Origin: Podarcis liolepis
Taxonomy: Eukaryota
DNA length: 64,000 bases
Reading direction: 5' to 3' (one strand)
NCBI GenBank assembly: GCA_965112155.1
Contig: OZ218103.1
Shown: positions 14,746 through 53,000 of the stretch, piece after piece
Numbering within the stretch: position 1 is the first letter of the stretch
Layout: every line of letters starts with the position of its first letter
Translations under genes and position numbers: made by a program
Notes under the pieces: model-generated
Databases searched by the model: none
What the model saw: only the letters and a program-made list of their open reading frames with translations
What the model was told of the DNA's origin: nothing

Positions 14746-16497
14746 TGATTATGCTTTTGGCACAATGCCCTTCCAGAAAGGAAGGCTAGGAATTGTGTTC
14801 AGTGTTAGACCTACTCAGCAGCAGACCCAATGACATTAATGGGCAGAACTAACTTAGGTCTGTTCATTTCAATGGGTCTAGAACATAGTTGGATATAATC
14901 AAAGGCTGCAGCCTTAATTAGTGTATGCGCTACATGCTTGGTGTCTCAAAGTGATGCCACGGAGTGTGAAAGGTGACATAAGGTGATATGGAAGCTCTGT
15001 CTGTGGCAGTAGCAGCTGGTGGTGTGGGGCAGAGTCACCCTCCCAGTACTGGTGGCCCAGCAGTTTACAGAAATGGGGCTGGGGCTGGGGCTGGGACAAA
15101 GCTGGGCTGTGTACCAGATTGGTTCCGCCGGTGCATCTGTCCAGTGCCTTTGCCCTCATCCTGACCTGCCCCATCCAAGCAAGGTGTAGAAATGTCTGTA
15201 TCGGGAAGGCTGCTCCCCGTGGCGCTCTGCTGCTCCGTCCCCATGTTTCTTCCTTTCTTATTTTTTTAATTGTTATCTAATCTGCTTTTATAAATGTCTG
15301 CCATGTGAGTTATGTCAATACGGAAAGCGGCAACTAATACGAAAAGCAGAATAAGAATGTGAAAAAAGGAAAGAACAGAGATATTTGCAGAGATATTTTT
15401 ATTTTAACATTATATTGCAATCTGCCTCGAACATATGCAGATGGGAAGATGGGGGTTAAATGATGATGATAATAATAATAATAATTCATAATATTTGACC
15501 TGGGCTTCATAAAGTATTCATTCTGTCTCTATAGGCTCACCTGTATTTGACAGTGTCAAAGGCAGGATCCATAGCTCTGTGGTTAGACCACATGCTTGGC
15601 TTGCACAAGACTCTTAATCTCAGTCTTGGGTTCGAACCCCATTGCAGGGGGTTGGACTGGATGACCTTTGGGATCCCTTCCAGCTCTAGGAGTCTATGAT
15701 TCTAAGATTACTAGGTTCAATCCACGGGTCTTTCAGCAAAGAGAAAATCAGCTAGCAGGAGTGGGCTACATATGTGCTTTGTTTTGTGTCACTGCAGGCC
15801 AGTGGTGGGTGGAGCCAGTCAGAAGTGGGCGGAGCCAGAGGCAAAGGTAGGTGGCTCAGTGGATGCCACTCTGACCCTTGTATAGCAGGCTGCATTCAGG
15901 CATGCAAAAGTCAGGGAACCCTACAGCCCGCCTCTGCATCCAGGCAACTGAGGCAAGCAAGAAACATTCTGGCAGTTCAAGGTCACATTCCAGCCAGGCA
16001 AAGACACTCTTTCAGCGAGAGGGGCTGTGCCCTAGTGAGGGCCCTGAGGTGGGGGATAGAGAGGTCTCTCAGCCTTTCTTTGTGTGCTATGTTCATTCTC
16101 GTTCTCTTGGGAACTTAAAGCTGTACTTCCTTGGGATGGAAGTACTATCGTACCCCGAAGAAACAAGAGTCTGGGGAGTGCTGTAGACATTTTTTTCCAG
16201 GTTTCCTTCAAAAAAGCTTTCCAAAGAGCATCTGTGCAATGCCACAACATGCCTATTGCTTCTCGAATTCCTTACATACACAACTGCTCCCCCTTATCCC
16301 CTTGAGACGCAGTCCTCCAATCGTGTTCATGCATAGAATATATACAGGACATTTTTCCTTCTGCAAGCTATGCAATGGAATGCGTTTGAGAAAAAGAAAG
16401 AAAAAAAAAACCCCCACGCGAAAGTAATCCTGTAATTTGACGCCAGGAAAAGCAAAACGGGGCAGCAACTTGATCTCCAGGGATGAGAGAAACTCCA

Positions 16498-16510
16498 ATT
16501 AATGTTTAAC
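16498..16510 (+). promoter_or_regulatory. HNF1A binding site of the PCSK9 promoter
   Basis: ATTAATGTTTAAC fits GTTAATNATTAAC and the recalled human PCSK9 site GTTAATGTTTAAT; 27 nt upstream of the SRE. Confidence 0.85.
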
Positions 16511-16519
16511 GAGATAGGA

Positions 16520-16528
16520 TGGTCCGAT
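16520..16528 (+). promoter_or_regulatory. HINFP-type motif between HNF1 and SRE
   Basis: TGGTCCGAT; the human PCSK9 spacer is recalled as ATCGTCCGAT, and GGTCCG is the HiNF-P core in histone H4 site II. Confidence 0.55.
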
Positions 16529-16537
16529 GGGATAATA

Positions 16538-16547
16538 GTGGCGTGAT
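16538..16547 (+). promoter_or_regulatory. Sterol regulatory element (SREBP site) of the PCSK9 promoter
   Basis: GTGGCGTGAT (reverse complement ATCACGCCAC), identical to the recalled human PCSK9 SRE; 365 nt upstream of the ATG. Confidence 0.88.
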
Positions 16548-16902
16548 CCGGCACATCCACGCCCCAAAAAGATTTAGAGGAGCACATGGAAAGGCAAAGG
16601 GGAGGAGGGAAAGTCGAAGCGGCGAGAAAGAAGCGGGCGAGGGGGGTGTGCGTGCGCGCTGTGTGTGCAAGCGAGCTGTGGGATGCGATTCCCATTTGCT
16701 GATCCTTCGCCCGGTGCAACTGCCGCCGCGCCAAGGGCAGCTCGCGCCAGCAGCCCGCTGATTGCAGGGCCCGCCAGGTTCTAGGCTCCGCCCGCGCCGG
16801 GTTCTAGGCGTCGCGCTGCGCTCCAGAGCCGAGCCTTTCCGCGCGCGGCGGGTTCTTCTCGGTCTCTGCCGACTCCCGCGTTCTTCGCAAGCCGGGGACA
16901 CG

Positions 16903-17085
16903 ATGGGCGCTCCGCTGCTGCTGCTGCTGCTGTTCCTGCTGGGCGCGCTCTCTCCGGCTGCTGCCAACCTCGACGATCCGGACGAGGACGACGACCTGGT
17001 GGCGTCCTTCGCCTTCGAGGAGGAGAGCCAGGCCGACTTGGGGAAATACCGGAGCGCGTCCGCCGCTTTCCATCGGAGCAACAAG
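16903..17085 (+). CDS. PCSK9: PCSK9 exon 1 (signal peptide and acidic prodomain N-terminus)
   Basis: [42 protein letters not shown]...AAFHRSNK; donor AAG|gtgacc. Confidence 0.9.
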
Positions 17086-20000
17086 GTGACCATGATGGAG
17101 AGGAGGACCAGAGGGACTCGGAAGGCTCCGGCTCCGGCTGGTGCCCTTGCTTCTTCTCTCCCACTCGCCTTGGGGTGGCCTGGAGGGGGGCACCTCCGTC
17201 CTCCGAGGCTCGGGTTCTAGTTTGAGGACTCTGGTCGTTCCAGACAGGCGGGGTTTGGGGGGCAGCGAGAGCCCCTGGCTCCCGTGCAAAAGTAGCTTTA
17301 CACGCTGCAATGGAGCTTATTGATTATTTCATAAAATGTATATATGCCTCTTGACTGCCGAAAAAACACATCGAAGAGATTCCCCCCCCCCCAAAAAAAG
17401 GCTTGGGACCTTAGGCTGCAGTTGCCCGGGAGTATAAGCTACAGCGAATTCCGTGGGACTTCTGAAGGGTTTGGCAATGTAAGGATTGCCCAAAGGACCC
17501 CATAGAGGCCCCGGGTTCGCATTGCACAGATGCTCGTTCCTTTGCTTGCGAGCGGTCAGCCCCTAAACCAGAGAGGATCTTGCCTGGCTCTGCCTTGCTC
17601 CCTCCCTCTGGACCACCCCCCCCCCGCGCCCCACCTGAAGCCGAGTGTGCATTATTGGGAAGCTTTGCGTGCCTGCTTCCAACCCCAGCATCTCCAGGCA
17701 GGACCCGGAATGGTTCCCTGCGTGAAAACCCTGGAGGGCCGCTGCCAGTCCGTGCCGGCAACGCTGAGTTAGAAGGGTCTGACTCAGTTTGAGGCGGCTT
17801 CTTAAATGGGCTGTGCTTTCTTGGGCGAGAAGGAAAATAATCTCTCTGCACATTGTCTTTGCATATGCCCCAGGCTGCTCTCCTCCTTATAGTCAGCTTC
17901 ACTTGTTTCTGGGCAGGGCTCTGGCATTCAGAAACATTTCCATGGGAGGAACCTAGGTTTACTTGAAGCCCTGTTTCTGTGGCACTGCTTCCCCAACCCC
18001 TTCCCCTGTCTGGAAACTTGTTTTCCCCATTTGGAAGGATACTAATGCATGCTTTGGGATTTCTGCTGCCAAATTCAGACACCCGCGGTAGGTCAGGACC
18101 TGGGATGGGCTTATTATTAGCATCATCGTTCATGAAGCAAAGGCTGTTGTGGGAACAGGGACCCAATACCCCCCTCCCCTGTTATTTTGGATCTATTCTG
18201 TTTCCTTATGAAATCATTCCCCTGTCCTCTCTTTTTTGGGGAGGGGGGTGTTGTCTCTTGAAGAAGGGACATTTGAAATGTTAGGTTCAGGCAGCGGGAG
18301 GAAGAGGCTTTGTGAAGCATCCATTTTAGGAAATTTGGCCAGGCACCAGTCATATACTATTGTAACGTTGGGCATGCCTTAAAGGCTTCCAGGATATTTT
18401 GCAACGAATGCACACCTGTTGCATTTTGCCTTCACTCAGAACCTCCTCGTCTGCTGAAAGGTAGATCTGCCTATTAAGGTCTTGTGATCTCTGGTGACAT
18501 GGCTTCTATTGGAACTATTCATTTTTAAAAATGCCTGCTTTGTCTTGCATGTGAGTTGAAAGATCTGGCATCCAGGGAGCGGTTGGGGAATGCAGGGGGT
18601 TGTTCTCCTGGCACTCTGCGTTGTATTGTCTTTCTTTTGTCTTTGGGGCACTTCTGAGCCTTGCCTCTTTTGATTGGATGCCTTTGTGCAGTCCACCTGC
18701 CTTGCAAGCTCCAGCCATGATAGAGAATATCTGCTGCCTTGGCTTGTGCTGTGCAGGGTGCACGGCTGACCTACCTCCTCTCAAGGGAGTGTCAGGAAGA
18801 GTCAAGGTGCTCTTGCAAATTCACTTCCCTGGCTTTTAGAGGTGGAGTCTGCCCAGCGATGAACCAGGTGGTATGGTCAATACTGGAAGCAGTGAGCAGT
18901 CAGCACCTGGATTTCTTAGATGTGTATGCAGCCCCCCCCCCCCAAAAAAAGGGTCACTGGATTTTGGTTTTGGCTTCTTTAAAAAAAAATCAGAACAGTG
19001 TAGGGGTGTGTGAAAAATGAAAAGAAAAAGGAACACAAATGGAGATTGCTAAAAGATGGGGGGCATCTATATGTGATCAACGCAGGAGATCTATAATTGG
19101 ATCTCTCGGCATCTTAAGAAGCACTTATAGGTGGGGTGGGGAAATGATTTGGATCAGGATTTAGTGCTGAAAGACCGGTTTTTAAACATTTTCCCCAGTT
19201 TAAATTTCCTCTGCCCAACGCTGCTACAGAGACGAGAGAAAGCACATCCAGTAATGGTTTATGTCTTCCACGCTCCACAGCTAATAGCAGCTTCTGGGAG
19301 GTGGGGATTTTAAATCATGGAAACAGTGCAGAGAAGAAGCTCCCCGGCCCCAATTCACTCAGCATCCAACCCTGATCCAAATCGGAGGATGTGACTGCTT
19401 TTGAGCAAAGATGTTGGGAGGTCTGATTCTGGATCTCCCATGTCCCATTCATCTCAGCCCTGTGCGATTGACTAGAAGATGGGAGAATAATTTGCTGGAT
19501 TCAGCAAGATTTGCTTCACAAAATTCCTGGTCCTTCCCCCTTTCTCATAGTTGCCTCTGATAACAGCTTCCTTCAAAGGGGCAGATTATACATGACATGG
19601 TGATGTGTGCAACAAATTCCAATTTTTTAAAAAAATAAAAAGCAGATTTTTAGTAGAGGTGTGTGAGCTTGTGTTTGCGCAATCCTTTCTTTGCTGATCA
19701 GTTTCCTCACTCAAAATCTCTCCCTGCTCCTGCTATTTCTTACACAAAGTTGTATACGTTTATATCCATATCTGTGGGTGGAATTGCTAGGAGAGAGAGA
19801 TTTTGAACTGGAAAAACGACCAGCACATCTTTCCTTCACTTTCAAAACCACATCAATTCTCAGTTGTCGTTCACTACGCAAATAAAGATTGTGCTGCTTT
19901 ATGTGTGTGCGCTTAACAAGGTGTTGTTTGCTTCTTAAAGTGGCTGTGTTGAGCCAAAAAATGTTAAGTCAGAGGAGTGGTTGAGTGGAATCTGTTTCCT

Positions 20001-23000
20001 TTCCAGTGAGGTGTTAAATACAGTGGTGCAGTAGTTACCGTATTTTTTGCACCATAACACTCACTTTTTTCCTCCTAAAAAGTAAGGGGAAATGTCTGAG
20101 CGTGTTATGGAGGGAATGCCTACGGGTGGCATGCCTATGGATTTTCCTCCTCTAGAAACTACGTCCGTGTTATGGTCGGGTGCATGTTATAGAGCGAAAA
20201 ATACGGTAATTTTGAAATGCAGGCCCTCTTCGTGACAGCACACCCACATCTCTTCTGAGGCTGTAAAGCCAAAATGATTTTTGGATAAATGCAGGGACCC
20301 CTTTCCAAGTTTTGCTTAATTTGCAGCCTGATGGAGAATTCTGGTGGACCTCTAAAGCTTGCTCGCTATTTTGATTAGCCATAATAGAGGGTGGTTGGTT
20401 ATCGGTGGTTGGTTATCTGGTCATTTTGTCTTTTAGAAAAGCTTTATTTGGTTGGCACGCAGAGGAGGCCACCCTCAGGGGGATGTCGCTGTCATTCCTG
20501 CTATGAAATCAGTGGCGCTTAGCTCCTTCTCTGCCACACCACTGGCTCATTTCATATGCATGTCAGAAGAAGTGAGCATGCAGAAGAGGCAGTGCCCAGT
20601 ATGTGGGACTGGGAGCATAATCTCGCACTTTCTTAAGGGCACCAGAGCCCCACCCTGTGCTTGCGCCACCCCCCTAGTGGGGCACACGCTTCTGCAAATC
20701 ACCTACCGACTCTCTACTTCTGTTTTGTCTAAACGCAGGACTTGTGGCGCCTGCCAGGGCAATACATTGTGGTGCTTAAGGAGGAAACCCACAAATCTCA
20801 GACGTCAAGGACCGCCAAGCGCCTGCAGGCCAGAGCAGCCAGGCATGGCTACTTGACGAAAATCCTGCATATCTTTGAGGACCTGTTCCAGGGCTTTCTC
20901 GTGAAGATGAGCAGCGACGTGCTGCACATGGTAAGTCCCTCTTTCTGCATCGGGGCTGGGGAACTCAGGGTCGCTCCAGATGTCAGCCCCAGTCAGCATG
21001 GTCTATGGGCGGGGACGAGGAGAGTTATAGTCCATCACGGTGCAATCAGAAATGTCCAGAGTGTGGAAGAAACTATTGTCAAAAGTATGCTTACAAGTTG
21101 GGAAAAGGCAGGCCCACCAGTCCTGTTGCCTCCTCTCATTTCCAAGTCAGTCTCCTATCTTCTCCTCCCAGTCCCTGACAGAGCCCAGCAGTATTTACAA
21201 GCACAATAGGTACTTATTTACGTTCAGATCTTGGCATGTCTCTCATCCAAGGCTCCCCTGGCTCTACAGTTTTATCAAATGCAGCATAAAATATACCTTG
21301 TGGGGTTCCACCAGTGGAATGGGTGCTCTTGGCTGCCCACAGCTCCAGTATCTGCTCCAGAGGGTTGGAGAGATTTGGAGAGGTCTGGTTCGCCAGAAGC
21401 AGCTTAGTGCTGGGCACATGACCCGGAAGCTGTACGCCGGCTCCCTCAGGCAATAAAGCGAGATGAGTGCCGAATCCCCAGAGTTGGTCACGACTGGACC
21501 TAATGGTCAGGGGTCCCTTTACCTTTACCTTTAGGGGAGCCATACTGGGGGAAGAGGAAGGGGAAAAGGGGAGGACCCATGCTGCAAGTAAAAGTCTCCG
21601 CCCGCGCCATGCCAAATGCCACCCAAACCCTGGGAAGGGAGGGTCTTGTAGGCCATCTAGTTGAAACCTCCCTGCTAAGGTTGGAGCAAGACTATCTTGT
21701 AAAAGATGGCTGTCTTTGAATATATTTTGTGCAATGCCATATCAACAACAAATATAGATATTTTAAAGAAATCTGGCTAGTAAAAGCAAGGCACCATCAT
21801 CTCAACAGCTGTTAATATCTGTAAAGGGAAAAAAAAGGTTAAGAATTTGGCTTTTGAGGAACAGAATCTGCTGGGATCTTTTGCTTAGTTAAAACCAGCT
21901 GCATGTATACAGATGTTTCTTTTTCAAGTGAGATTTCTTTCAGTTTCAGACTCTTCTTTTGGTGCACTAAGCAGAATGCTTAAGTGAGCAGAAAGAAAAA
22001 TTCCCAAAACACTTTGGGGGGCTAATACTTGTACATCTGTCTGCTTTTTGTTTCTGGTTTCTGTCGTCCCTACAGTTATTATTATTTTTTAATCATCTCT
22101 GTTGTATGAACTTTCACTAAGTCCCTATTCCCCATTGTGTGGGGCAATGATGTGGGTCTTCTGGCAATGTGCGACTGGCCGAAATCGACCAGGATCTACT
22201 GAGTGGTGTTTGAGTTGTTTTTAGTACACAAAACTGAGCAAGTACACCATGTGAATTCTACTTGTTGTATAAATATCTCAAATTGTTTTTCCCATAACCA
22301 GTAGTGGGAAGGCTGTGTGGTTGTGTTGCTCTCTTGTCTTCCTGGGGCTGCATATGGCCGCCGCTCATAGGCAGGAAGGGGGAACAAGGCCGCAGGAGCT
22401 CAACATGGCGCAGGGGCAGAAGGAGCAGCTTGGCTTTGCTCTGCTCCCACACCATACTGAACGCCTCCTTCTCTCAGTCAGTGGCAGCGAGGCACAGAGT
22501 TGTGAAAAGTGGGGGTCAATGTAGGCCGCCATCCCTGTGTAGCCTTAGCCGGTAGGCCAACTGTAGTTGAACTAAAATATATGATTGGGGTAAGAATAAA
22601 TAAATCAGGGAAGTGCACTTTTAAGAGCTTTGCTTGAAAAATGTGCTTTAGTTGGAATGCTTGAAAGTAAGTTAAGACATCACAATTTGGCAGCATGCTC
22701 TTCCTTTATATTGTTTAAATCTTAAAGAGAAGAAAAATGAAAGATACTGGAGCTGGACCAGTTAACATTCCAATATTAGTACAGTAAACATCCAACTTAA
22801 ACTTGTGGGCATTCAGCTTTATGTGTGTGGTAAAAAAATAAAGAAAAATTTAAAGGGAGGTGGTTCTGGGGAATATATGACCTTGGCAATTCCCCCCCCC
22901 CATTGAATGGGAGGGCATGACTCTTAATTTCAGGCTCATAGGTTTGAGCCTCACAGTGAGTGAAAGATTCCCTTCCAACTCTACAAGTCTGTGATTCTGT

Positions 23001-26000: not shown

Positions 26001-29000
26001 TTTCGGTGCATTTCCCGGTCACTTTTGAAACCAGTTTCTTTTTAAAAGTGGATTTGTTGCTCCAGGGCACTAATTGTATAAATCTGAATTTCCAGATGCT
26101 CTCTCATTGATGGGGAGGAGCTGCAGGGAGAAGAGGAAATTACACAAATGGCCTCTCTCCACATTCCATTAGATGATTTTGGACTCCACCTCCCCCTAGC
26201 CCCAGCCAACATGGCCACTGCTCAGGGTGATGGGAGTTGTAGTCCAGCAACATCTGAAGGCCCACAGATCCCCCATTCCTGTTATATGCTCTGTATACTT
26301 TTAGGAGAAGAGTAGGATGATGTCGATGATATTTCTTGCATGACTTGCACCGTTCTTCCCGTGTCGTCTTTTGTGCAGGCTTTGAGACTGCCGCATGTGG
26401 ATTATATAGAAGAAGACTCCTATGTGTTTGCTCAGAGCATTCCCTGGAACCTGGGCCGGATTGTCCCTGTGCAAGACGGATCTACTGAATATAATCCTCC
26501 CAGTAGGTGATATTCCCATTCAACCATGTGTGCATGAGATGCCAAATATCTATGGAGTCAACAACAAAATCCTATGCAGAGGGATGGCACTACCTATCAC
26601 TGATTGCTTGGTCTGCCACTATGTGGTTCACATCGGACTGCATTCCATGGGCGTGGGGCCACCACCAATAAGGCCCTGTTTCACATGCTTGCTGCCCTTA
26701 CAGCCCTATTTGGGCCTGAGACCGTCACATGACAATAGCGAGACCAGCTCCGGATCCAGTGGATCTCAGGCTGGCTTAGTCCTGCCCCTCTTTTCCCCAG
26801 GAGAACTCCATCTGGGGGCTTTCTGCTGGCGAAGACTTGCCAGCTTGCCTCTCATCCCCATGCTTGGCAGCTGATGCAGGGCTGGGCTGAGCCAGTGGAG
26901 ATAAGCAGAGGAACAGCCTTGCTGAATCCACCCACCCAACCCGGCTTGGTGTGAGGGTTGCTTTGAATTGCTCTGCATGTATTCTTTTTGCAACATAGTT
27001 TTTATTCATTTCCTTCTCTAAACATGATTGCATTGGGATACATCTTTGTTTACTTTAGAGCATATGACATGCAACAATTACATGAAATTTAAAATGGAAA
27101 TAAAACAACCATAAGTACTCAGGTAAACGTTTCTGAATCTATTAACAAAGTTGTGTCAAAATGGAGACCTTCAGGTGACAAGCAACTAGTAAGTTTAATA
27201 AATGAATGAAATAAGTGTTTGTGCCAAAATGATTACAATTGTTGCAGATATGAAATTTTATATATAGTAAATTGCATTGATTGCTTTGATGGGTAAAAGG
27301 TATTTTGTATCAGTAACAATTAGAATTTATAGGAAGGGAGGAGGAAGCGGGGAAGGGGGAGAAATTAAAACATGTACTTCATTATACACATGTTTCTGAT
27401 TAAAACATAAATTTAACAATAAGCAGAGTGGATTTTCTGAATATCACTTTTTGTTTTCTGCTAAAACCACTAGATGGTTAAATGCTGAGACCTCAAATAA
27501 TTACTGGATAGGCTACTTCACTTTTTAAATAGCGAAGTAGACTGACTCACCCCCACCCCAATTTCCGCTTTCCGAAGATTGCAAATCTGGCCTTAACGAC
27601 ACAGAAACAGAGCAGCCAACTCACTTGTATTGCCTTTGATCACCAGAATAGAAGGGATAATCGTGTTAAGTCCAATCTTCCATTTCCTTGCCTGCCTGCT
27701 CCGTACAAGACAAAATTGGAGCAGCTCCCTTTATAAATTGCTTGCACAAGATAAACCTCATTGTATATTGGCATGCTGGGATGCTGCGTTGAGAGCAATG
27801 CCTTCACTGCCTCTTGGCGTCACTGACTGACTCTCTCCTCTTTTTAGACAGGGGCGACCTGGTTGAAGTTTATCTGCTGGACACTGGGGTCCAGAGCAAC
27901 CACCGAGAGATCGAGGGCAGAGTGTTCATGACTGAATTTGAGAACGTCCCAGAAGAAGATGGCACTCGCTTCCACCGACAGGTACGCCAGCTCTGCTTCA
28001 TGAGCGATGACGACTTTCTTGCCACCTTCCCCTTTTACCAGTGACGTTGCTAGAACCCTATGTTTATTATGATGGCTCAACCCTGAAACCTTTAGTCCTT
28101 GGAGGAGATTTGTGGGATTAAGCACCAGTTACGGTGTTTCTGTGGGAGCAGCATGTGTAATTCAATCTGTCAGTTTCTTCAGGCTCGCTTTTTCATTATG
28201 TTGAAAAGGGATGCTCGCAACTGTACCGCTGGGAAGTGGGTGAGTTCTTAACAGACACTCACCATGGTGGATGCTGAATGTGCTTCTGTGCATCCCAGTG
28301 AGATGCCATTTGTGGACAGACCTGACTGCAGCCAGATTCCCTCTGACCAAGATGTTGGATCCTAGTCTTCCCATTGGGTCACTTCCTCTCCTCCAGGGCG
28401 GGATGGCCTCTTAAGGTGGTTTCAGATATGTACATTGCATGGAGATTTCCAGACTGAATGGCACAATTGCGGTGGAAATCTGTGCACATGCTCAGTGCCA
28501 TCTTAAGAGGCCTAAAGCCAGTGAGATAAGGTCCAGGGCAGCATTTTTCAAATAAAATTGAACCAAAATTTTCATACCAACTAATTTTTGCGCTGCAGTT
28601 TGACACCTGAGGCTGGGCTTTCATCCTGCCTCTGTGGGTTGAATTGAAGGGAAAGCCCACAGAAGGAGTCTGGTGGAAGCTGACTTTTCAACCCTGATGG
28701 CCTCCACCCCAGAAAAGCCACTCCTTTGGGTTGGGGTACCTTGTTGAATGGGGTGGAATGTGATGATGATGATGATAATATATTATTTATACCCCGCCCA
28801 TCTGGCTAGGTTTCCCCAGCCACTCTGGACGGCTTCCAACAAAGTATTAAAATACAGTGGTCTGTTAAACATTAAAAGCTTTCCTAAACAGGGCTGCCTC
28901 CAGATGTTTTCTAAAAGTCTGGTAGTTATTCTTCTCTTTGACATCTGGTGGGAGGGCGTTCCACAGGGCGGGTGCCACTACCGAGAAGGCCCTCTGCCTG

Positions 29001-50000: not shown

Positions 50001-53000
50001 CAAGCAAGTTACGTTTATAAATATGAAATATGCTGCACTATGATCTAGGAGACCAGGGTTCAAATCCCCACTTGGCAATGAAGCTCACTTGGGCCAGTCG
50101 CAGTCTCTTAGCTTAACCTACTTCACAGGGTTGTTGTGGGGATTGAGGAAGGGAAGAAGCATGCATGCCACCTTCAGCTCCTTCGCAAAAAGGGTGGGAT
50201 AGAAATGCAATTACTATGCATGCATGGAGTGCATGGATGAATGGAGGAATATGCCAGAAGCTCTGGCTATTTGTACCTTTTTGCAGAGCCTTTTCATGTG
50301 CTACAATAGCTAATGTGTACGGTGAAGTGCAAATAAGCTCTTTCATTCTGAAGAATTGGCATCTGCCAATATGGAGATTATGCAACAGGCAATTCGATTC
50401 TGTACTGCACAGAGCTGCTACGTACACAGACATGTGTGTGCGCGCACACACACACACGCCTCAGGCACCAACGTAGAACAGGCCATGTTTTGAAAGTGTA
50501 CCCTGACTGGTTTCTCCTTACCTTGATGAAATGGAGAATGGTAAAGGAAAAGTGCTCATTACAAAAGCAGCAGTACACCACCATCTCAATGAGGACCAGC
50601 AGCGACCCAGTTAGCTCCCTTAATGCGTACATCACCTAATGAAACACAAAAAGTCAGATTAGGCAGCCGTTCTTTCTTAAAATAAAAATAAAAATCCAGC
50701 TTTGGGAAGCTCGTAGATTTGCTCTTTTTAAATGTTCTTCACATTTAAGACCCAACCCAAGCCTCATAATTTAGAGGCCTAAAACAGTAGCTTACCTCCA
50801 TTAAATAAGGCTTCCCCTCAGGCAGGAACAGTAAAGCTTCTACTTCTTCATGGAGGGCCAGGAGCGGTCCAGAGGTGGTAATGCTAAGGGGTGAATGCAG
50901 AACACACAGACCAGGAGCTGAAAAATAAACGAAATGAAATGAAATATGGAGGCAGGAAACATGCAGAGGGACGAGTGGTGGAGAGGATAGCAAAAACTTT
51001 GATCCACGTGATTTTGGGCCTTCCTGAACAAATACGAGGAGACATCCCCCACCTGCCTGCATCCTGAGAAAATAGTTGAACCACTACTCCTTTTGAGTAG
51101 CAACTTTATATGCAGAGAGTAAATAGCAGGGGTTTGCACTGGTTCTGTGTACTGCAAATTACAAGGTGAATCAGGGTGATTTGGGGAAGATTCCCACATC
51201 AGACTGTGATACTAGCATGGTGCCTCCAGATGGACTGGGGACTCCCTAAGCCTCCAGGTGGCTCTGTGCCCTTGAGTCCCACCCCTAGCCTCCCAGAAAC
51301 TAAGTCAAGCTGACTGGGGGAAACTCCCAAAACTCGGAAGGGTGGAAAGGTGGTGGAATCTGAGAAACAGGTCTAGCTTTGAAACACTGATTTCTTTTCC
51401 CAGAGCACTCCAATCAGATATTTAGAGGAGGGGTTGAAAGCTATTTCTTTACATGTTCCATTCTTTACAGTGAATGGAAAGATTTCCATTGTATGCCTCA
51501 AAGTAAGTGGGAAAGGGGCTGAAGACCAGCCCTTTGACCCTTATGGTAACAGGTCCTTGCTGGGAGAAAACCCCTTTCTCCTTGGGAGAAGAGAATTTGC
51601 CTCCAAATGTCTGTGGGAGGCAGAAGCTCAACCCCCTAACTACAACCATTTGGGCACAAGGGTCTTTGCTAGGGGCGACATTCCCCACACTCGATATTTC
51701 CTGAGAATCTAGCACTTTTTTCTTCGCCCGCAATTCCTAGTGTGCCCACCCTAAAATGGTCAAGTCTGTCCTTGTGGGAGAAGCGCTGTGAAGCTTCATT
51801 CCCTCACAGAAAGGGTGACTGTGCATACAAATTTCACCCAATTCTGGAAGAAAATGAAAAAAAGTATAACTCGTCCTTTGATGGGAAAAGAATCTAACCT
51901 TTAGGTGTCCCCTGGATATAAATGCCTAGTTTGCAGCCTTAATCCATTCTGGAGGGTCCTCCAAGCAAGGACCCACTGGCATATTTAACCCACTTCTGTG
52001 AAAAGGGAAGAAAGTTACAGCTGTTTTTGGATTCTCCATTATCATGAAGGGGTTGAGAAAACAGAGCTTAATTTTTAACAGATCTAAATTGGCTCTGCTC
52101 TGAATAATAATGGGTTGAATTGGAAAGACTGGCTCCAAACAGATCAGGCTGCTTCCCAAAGCTTCAGATTAAAAGTTGAATATGGTGGCTGGTGTACACT
52201 CCTTCCAAATAGTCACTGAAAACCAGGAGTTGCTCTTGGTGGGTAAACTGAGGAAGTTTAATCTCTTTACTGAAGATCTGCCAAGCTGCATTATTAACAG
52301 CGGCCATTTAGTTTTGTCAAATAAAATACTTACCCACATTCCTTTGTGATGAGACATCAGAGTGCAAAACAAGCAGCGCCACGGTATTATGGAGGAACCC
52401 AAACTCTCGAGCTTGTGCTGAACTCCATCTGCGATTCTGTTTTTGTTAGGCAATATTAAAAAAAGAGAGTAGAAGATTATTTTGCAAGCCCTGCTTAAAC
52501 ATCATTGCCTGCACATACTTTTCAGTTTTGTGTCTTTTCTTTTCTTTTCTTTAAGGGAAGAGCATTTCTAAAACCAATCATATGCTTGCTTTAAGTAAGC
52601 AGCAACTGTGTTCATCTACTAGTAGCAAAGTGTAGAGTGCTATATGGAAAGCTCATTTTGAGTTTCCAAGGTAGACTCAGTTTTATGGTACAGCAGAACC
52701 TAGGCATATCGCACCATGAATCGGGTTATGTTGCAAGTAGGCACCCGTTTCTGTTTGATTAATGCAAAAAGCCTTCTATCAGCAACTTGTCCCAACAATG
52801 GGCAGGGTGTTCCAAGAGGGAGAAGCAATGCATGCGGCAAGTTCAGAACGGGGCTGAGTTGTGCTGAATCACCTACAGGCTTGAGGCAGTCAGTACCAGC
52901 AGCTGCCAAGGCAGGCCAGACACATGGCTCTGCCTCCCTCCTGCCTCAAATGCTGCTGGCAGCGCAGAGCTGGGCCCAAGGGAAGCAGCTGCAGGGAGTC

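Follow-up and report, generated by a model that had tools for sequence, protein, structure and literature searches.

The window, by which we mean the whole 64,000-nt stretch of DNA analysed here, carries a complete PCSK9 gene together with its proximal promoter (Table 1). All exons were modelled with GT..AG boundaries, and the 12 exons are matched in order by lacertid, gecko and marsupial PCSK9 proteins. The closest named match is lacertid: 655 of the 678 residues are identical to PCSK9 of Lacerta agilis, compared to which the protein is 5 aa shorter. The joint between exons 1 and 2 was recovered at the modelled splice sites in contigs from two presumed-RNA runs of one related species. A Barttin exon is located ~19 kb 5′ of PCSK9, and a UCH-domain gene follows 3′ on the opposite strand; this arrangement resembles what we take to be the human neighbourhood, of the BSND-PCSK9-USP24 type.

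Two features of the coding region can be mentioned here. The leucine run of the signal peptide is encoded by a CTG repeat (16914–16932), and the human PCSK9 leucine tract is polymorphic and likewise encoded by CTG repeats. In addition, the 11 bird PCSK9 proteins aligned (P0033–P0113) have an Ala/Gly/Arg-rich, faster-evolving prodomain with 57–63% identity to the lacertid one, the corresponding values for crocodilian and turtle being 82–88%; the bird models lack a precomputed I9 Pfam match and keep the LDLR-contact residues.

The original prediction placed an HNF1-HINFP-SRE module 365–405 nt upstream of the PCSK9 start codon. The 50-mer is indeed present, exactly as written, at positions 16498–16547, that is, 405 to 356 nt 5′ of the ATG (16903), with the HNF1-like site starting at −405 and the SRE at −365. 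It is located at the 5′ edge of the CpG island, in the proximal promoter of an orthologous and intact PCSK9.

Table 1. Features of the PCSK9 promoter and gene in the window (strand "." where none applies)
Feature	Position	Strand	Remarks
Invariant block	16431–16652	.	222 nt; no listed substitution or indel in the DNA contigs of relatives C, E and F
CpG island	16450–17200	.	promoter and exon 1; GC 0.53–0.72, CpG observed/expected ~0.7–1.2
HNF1-type site	16498–16510	+	11/13 to consensus, 11/13 to human; putative binding site
Forkhead-like core TGTTTA	16503–16508	+	inside the HNF1 site
27-nt spacer	16511–16537	.	between the HNF1-like 13-mer and the SRE
AGATAGGAT	16512–16520	+	9/9 identical to human; holds a WGATAR word (16512–16517)
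HINFP-type core	16520–16528	+	matches the element 5′ of the TATA box in histone H4 genes of the genome
Diverged 6-nt linker	16532–16537	+	1/6 identical to human, same length
Sterol regulatory element (SRE)	16538–16547	-	10/10 identical to human PCSK9 SRE; sole such 10-mer in the window
SP/KLF-type GC box	16557–16565	+	3′ of the SRE
PCSK9	16903–39569	+	12 coding exons, 678-aa open frame; catalytic triad and autocleavage site intact
PCSK9 coding exon 1	16903–17085	+	signal peptide and start of acidic prodomain; spliced to 20739

Comparison with the human promoter and with related lizards

The human sequence was taken from published reagents, namely the HNF1 probe with its coordinates (−386 to −374) and the HNF1 consensus (PMC2781434), a 31-nt oligonucleotide that crosses the spacer (PMC10855603), a primer carrying the HINFP mutation, which runs from the spacer into the SRE and identifies the five bases exchanged (PMC7026728, supplement 1), and the sequence (PMC10036592) and position (−346/−337; PMC8626262) reported for the SRE. 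The human promoter sequence and the 27-nt spacer that the original prediction had given agree with these printed primers, probes and coordinates. Aligned without a gap, lizard and human share 41 of 50 bases as counted by eye (HNF1 site 11/13, spacer 20/27, SRE 10/10), so that the match claimed for both sites, for their 27-nt spacing and for most of the spacer is borne out. Within the spacer the identity is very uneven, amounting to 19/21 over the first 21 bases and 1/6 over the last six; the nine differences thus fall on both end bases of the HNF1 site, on spacer positions 1 and 11, and on five of the last six positions.

A match no better than that of the flanking DNA had been named beforehand as a reason to abandon the proposal. 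The flanks align poorly, with 4 of 14 bases identical 5′ of the module and 11 of 23 identical 3′ of it (15/37 together), a comparison that is short (37 nt) and whose 3′ register is deduced from the primer overlap (PMC7026728, supplement 1). Since the module stands clearly above its flanks (41/50 vs. 15/37, Fisher p = 8e-5), this objection does not apply. Lizard and human share the order, orientation and 27-nt spacing of the sites, the SRE and the HINFP core mutated in the human reporter, as well as the overlapping forkhead word, the CpG-island setting and, within 19 nt, the distance to the ATG. The direct comparison covers two lineages, human and lacertids; for mouse and rat, the text of PMC2781434 states that the HNF1, Sp1 and SRE sites of Pcsk9 are fully conserved with human, unlike the HNF1 site of the lizard, which is not 100% identical.

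Among the relatives, the 50-mer is unchanged in contigs of four lizard species (labels C, E, F and G). Three of the seven organism labels listed (C, E and F) span 16150–16900 in a single contig, whereas the contigs of G cover the module; its X17 contig shows no change from 16413 through the invariant block. Altogether, 24 change events were counted in 727 positions, none of them within 16431–16652; the count omits the A-run at 16389–16412 and a single change known from no more than 4 raw reads, and two further differences in each DNA contig plus two in the X15 contig were left unplaced, probably near the end of the stretch. A change-free run of this length has p = 0.003 in a scan test, the block having been delimited after the fact, while the invariance of the 50-mer taken alone has p = 0.18. 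Two metagenome scans for outgroup PCSK9 promoters gave no match in one case and two chance matches without spacer similarity in the other.

Predicted binding sites within the module

In the HNF1-type site, the lizard has lost a consensus base at the left end and gained one at the right end relative to human, so that both sites score equally against the consensus (11/13; consensus from PMC2781434). Such offsetting end-base changes are the pattern expected from selection on binding. The genome encodes an HNF-1A_C domain and thus an HNF1A-type gene. The TGTTTA word owes its existence to a non-consensus T shared by both species, and the human HNF1 site is reported to contain a FoxO site (PMC8589637); the lizard word is likely its counterpart, an overlap that the original prediction had overlooked. 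The first base of the lizard HNF1 site also creates a CCAAT word (16495–16499) that overlaps the site and is absent from the human probe.

Downstream of the SRE there is a GC box, presumably of the SP/KLF type. It has a 7-base word in common with the human 3′ flank, located ~7 nt further from the SRE than in human in the register deduced above; therefore, spacing near the module does drift. In human cells, the downstream Sp1 sites were reported to have little effect, and an upstream Sp1 site at −430, ~35 nt 5′ of the HNF1 site, a minor role (PMC2781434). This latter site is without a convincing counterpart in the lizard: a GC-box search of 16400–16497 gave no match, the only G-run being near 16459–16465.

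All five bases that were altered in the HINFP-mutant version of the human reporter (PMC7026728) are retained (16522–16526), and the HINFP core lies between the HNF1 site and the SRE. Histone H4 genes of this genome were fetched as well; of 12 matches, 11 were used, the twelfth not being H4. Each of the 11 H4 promoters (L006–L016) has one bipartite element, always equally far 5′ of the TATA box; we take this element to be site II, the HiNF-P/HINFP site. The middle position of its core varies (G in 7 promoters, C in 3, T in 1). A 9-base matrix built from them, with its window chosen when the match was already known, ranks 16520–16528 first of 127,984 positions in the window. On the other hand, the full H4 element scores −11 at the spacer, as compared to 22–29 at the H4 promoters, since the invariant T-rich 5′ half and the TATA box are absent; their places are taken by AGATAGGA and the SRE, respectively. 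A complete site II was thus rejected for the spacer, and the element would work like the H4 core and not as a site II.

With these sites placed, the module reads as 13 nt of HNF1 site, 21 conserved nt, 6 free nt and 10 nt of SRE. The original prediction saw in the invariant spacer the sign of a phased composite element. The 27-nt length is indeed kept, but 21 of the 27 bases are themselves conserved sequence, and the probability of finding zero indels in the six free bases is 0.3–0.74 under the assumed indel rates. The constant length is therefore mostly a by-product of abutting footprints and does not prove helical phasing, which is weakly supported.

Next to the HNF1 site there is a further conserved stretch, for which the H4-type HINFP element does not account. 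Spacer positions 2–10 are identical to human at all nine positions (p = 3e-4 at the flank rate; positions 2–8, p = 2e-3), they lie outside the mutated HINFP core, and the T-rich 5′ half of the H4 element fits them very poorly, ranking them 114,046th of 127,984. The WGATAR word they contain is the only one in 16400–16910. These observations would suit a four-factor enhanceosome, in which the AGATAG 3′ of the HNF1 site is bound by GATA4/6 or another factor only together with HNF1-alpha; such a site would supplement the HNF1-HINFP-SRE reading and would not replace it. GATA4 and HNF1-alpha act in synergy on endodermal promoters; AGATAG is, however, a weaker GATA word than AGATAA. Against this idea, the human HNF1 probe containing AGATAGG forms two complexes, both of which are supershifted by anti-HNF1-alpha and neither of which is competed by an HNF1-mutant oligonucleotide that retains the GATA word (PMC2781434), although this word is near the end of the probe. 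Furthermore, a longer HINFP footprint, extending 5′, could take in some of the stretch; a review places the human HINFP motif 20 bp upstream of the SRE (PMC8589637). The extra GATA-like factor of the original prediction thus keeps its conserved stretch but is disfavoured as a stand-alone GATA site, the human mobility-shift data reported giving no HNF1-independent complex. Titles and opening lines of abstracts that pair the PCSK9 promoter with GATA contained nothing on this site. An enhanceosome of four factors at the PCSK9 promoter, shared by all amniotes and with a GATA-type site constrained like the known sites, is a tentative and somewhat doubtful proposal. If true, the lizard footprint would reveal an uncharacterised functional element in the human promoter, at which transcriptional and epigenetic silencing drugs are aimed.

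Transcription start, predicted sterol response and chance

The spacer could also be conserved mainly as a core-promoter or start region, or as 5′ UTR, instead of as upstream factor sites. The middle of the human spacer is labelled as a PCSK9 transcription initiation target (PMC10855603), and the H4 promoters carry the same core just 5′ of their TATA box. In the lizards, one spliced contig of 4980 nt (X15, from a presumed-RNA run) begins at 16401, crosses the module and continues into exon 2, so that part of the module may be transcribed. In X17, however, the depth of the module contig is 6.19, at the level of upstream DNA (6.67) and intron pieces (2.5–3.2) and far below that of the spliced exons (55.5); both runs are presumed RNA only, and contigs as such cannot show transcription starts. 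Raw reads of runs X23, X24 and X21 are too sparse in this region to inform on the start. Moreover, mutations at the sites on which the conserved bases fall reduce the activity of human reporters, and Rfam found no structured-RNA match in 15000–18000, a result on which a structured-RNA reading was rejected as well. We consider it unlikely that the start region accounts for the conservation, and we favour upstream sites for HNF1, HINFP and SREBP2.

Two upstream ATGs, at 16586 and 16683, are located between the SRE and the start codon and open frames of ~38 and ~33 codons, respectively, as counted by eye; a 1-nt insertion at 16769 in relative G, within the second frame, argues against a conserved peptide. 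In intron 1, a SINE-like repeat (20035–20211) has very deep RNA coverage originating from elsewhere in the genome.

Another possibility is that the module is a homologous relic, or was re-wired, and is kept for basal or HNF1-driven expression, PCSK9 not being sterol-inducible in the lizard. In line with this, raw RNA reads from two runs of unspecified tissue give almost no coverage of the PCSK9 exons, and the repeated loss of PCSK9 in mammals (PMC7929951) indicates that the circuit is dispensable. Nevertheless, an SRE identical at 10/10 positions beside a diverged linker is hard to explain without SREBP binding, and LDLR keeps its SRE. This gene was located at G000:C18 through its LDLa repeats. 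A search with an LDLR promoter pattern gave 5 matches vs. 7 for controls and missed the LDLR locus, the SRE of the lizard having a terminal T; Spc24, sought in the genome as a synteny marker for LDLR, gave nothing. In the LDLR promoter itself (G000:C18:10552030–10552120, minus strand), two identical GC boxes flank an SRE-like 10-mer, ~245 nt 5′ of the ATG. Mammalian LDLR promoters likewise have an SRE with flanking Sp1 repeats or GC boxes. In this lizard, too, the SRE of LDLR stands beside co-activator sites, as in PCSK9; the partners are GC boxes in LDLR but HNF1 and HINFP in PCSK9, which would make the latter liver-restricted.

At the protein level, the lizard LDLR EGF-A is identical at 34 of 40 positions to the human LDLR chains solved with PCSK9, and 15 of the 16 PCSK9 positions that we take to contact EGF-A are identical between lacertids and human, the exception being V380, which is T. 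The SRE of LDLR and the conserved binding surfaces indirectly support a coupling of PCSK9 and LDLR in the lizard, and co-regulation of the two by sterols is plausible on the same grounds. In zebrafish, brain injury is followed by a joint decrease of pcsk9, ldlra/b and srebf2, and cholesterol genes show an enrichment of SRE motifs, in passages that give no SRE at pcsk9 itself (PMC8162057, PMC11664473). This co-expression speaks against a relic and suggests that the PCSK9 sterol circuit may be older than the amniotes, a hint that had escaped the original prediction. Taken with the SRE retained by LDLR, it leaves the loss of sterol induction an improbable explanation, and a module that probably still responds to SREBP2 the one we retain.

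A second LDLR-family gene is present at G000:C18:13290001–13323000 (L027–L030) and is presumably VLDLR-like, judging by its tail. A perfect SRE 10-mer at 13341575, ~19 kb beyond the CpG island of this gene, is probably due to chance.

As to the module itself, the frequency of either motif taken singly is that expected by chance in the window: HNF1 motifs with up to 2 mismatches were found 3 times vs. 2.49 expected in 64 kb (the two others, at 28864–28876 and 52067–52079, with 2 mismatches each, are at chance level), and the SRE 10-mer once vs. 0.64 expected. Their combination is another matter, as none of 5000 shufflings of the kilobase upstream of the gene placed an HNF1 motif and an SRE within 60 nt. 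The pattern HNF1-N20-35-SRE, written so as to include the PCSK9 site, has this site as its single match in the 1.57-Gb genome, vs. 0 for the control, and the best ungapped match to the 50-mer elsewhere in the window is 26/50. The surrounding 301 bases are without a second copy in the genome, which led us to reject a repeat or multicopy origin. A bipartite 14-base word from the spacer has one match, against 12 for the reversed control, and is therefore not a recurring exact motif. That the match arose by chance or convergence, or that human DNA contaminates the assembly, is thus extremely improbable, being refuted by the shuffles, the Fisher test, the identical letters in contigs under four other lizard species labels, the nine differences from human, the 26/50 of the next-best match, and an ungapped identity of 41/50 at the orthologous position that includes bases no consensus demands.

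Age and meaning of the module

Overall, the sequence comparison makes it quite probable that the 50-base block and the human PCSK9 module are orthologous, that purifying selection has preserved the module from the amniote ancestor, if not from an earlier one, and that it likely works in the lizard as in human liver. In human studies, HNF1-alpha sets basal hepatic PCSK9 transcription and is required for activation by SREBP2, HINFP recruits NPAT/TRRAP with acetylation of histone H4, and FoxO3/SIRT6 competes at the HNF1 site. By analogy, HNF1-alpha, HINFP and SREBP2 of the lizard would bind these sites side by side and render PCSK9 liver-enriched and sterol-inducible. Low sterol would then induce LDLR and PCSK9 together, and PCSK9 would limit the rise in LDLR, as in mammals. 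Counting against this explanation, HINFP knockdown left one drug response unaltered in one human study.

The original prediction dated the sterol-feedback circuit before the synapsid/sauropsid split. For the module this stands, in that its homology at the orthologous place in two lineages suggests an origin at or before the amniote ancestor; the sterol response of the lizard is a prediction from it. Conservation of this kind is mostly expected, with the exception of the one short GATA-like stretch. Deep conservation of proximal promoters is a common pattern, probably visible here in public vertebrate alignments, and the surprise is therefore modest. The open literature searched yielded no study of a non-mammalian PCSK9 promoter, a weak result since subscription papers, supplements or figures may hold one; the main text of an evolutionary study of PCSK9 (PMC7929951) uses the word "promoter" once and HNF1 never.

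With these results a well-studied, drug-relevant promoter module, described in three mammals, is extended to a reptile. They also provide a base-level footprint for the human reporter, in which the spacer comprises 21 conserved and 6 free bases, ~7 of the former being without an assigned factor in the sources consulted. Finally, they would date the wiring of PCSK9 by HNF1 and SREBP to at least the amniote ancestor.
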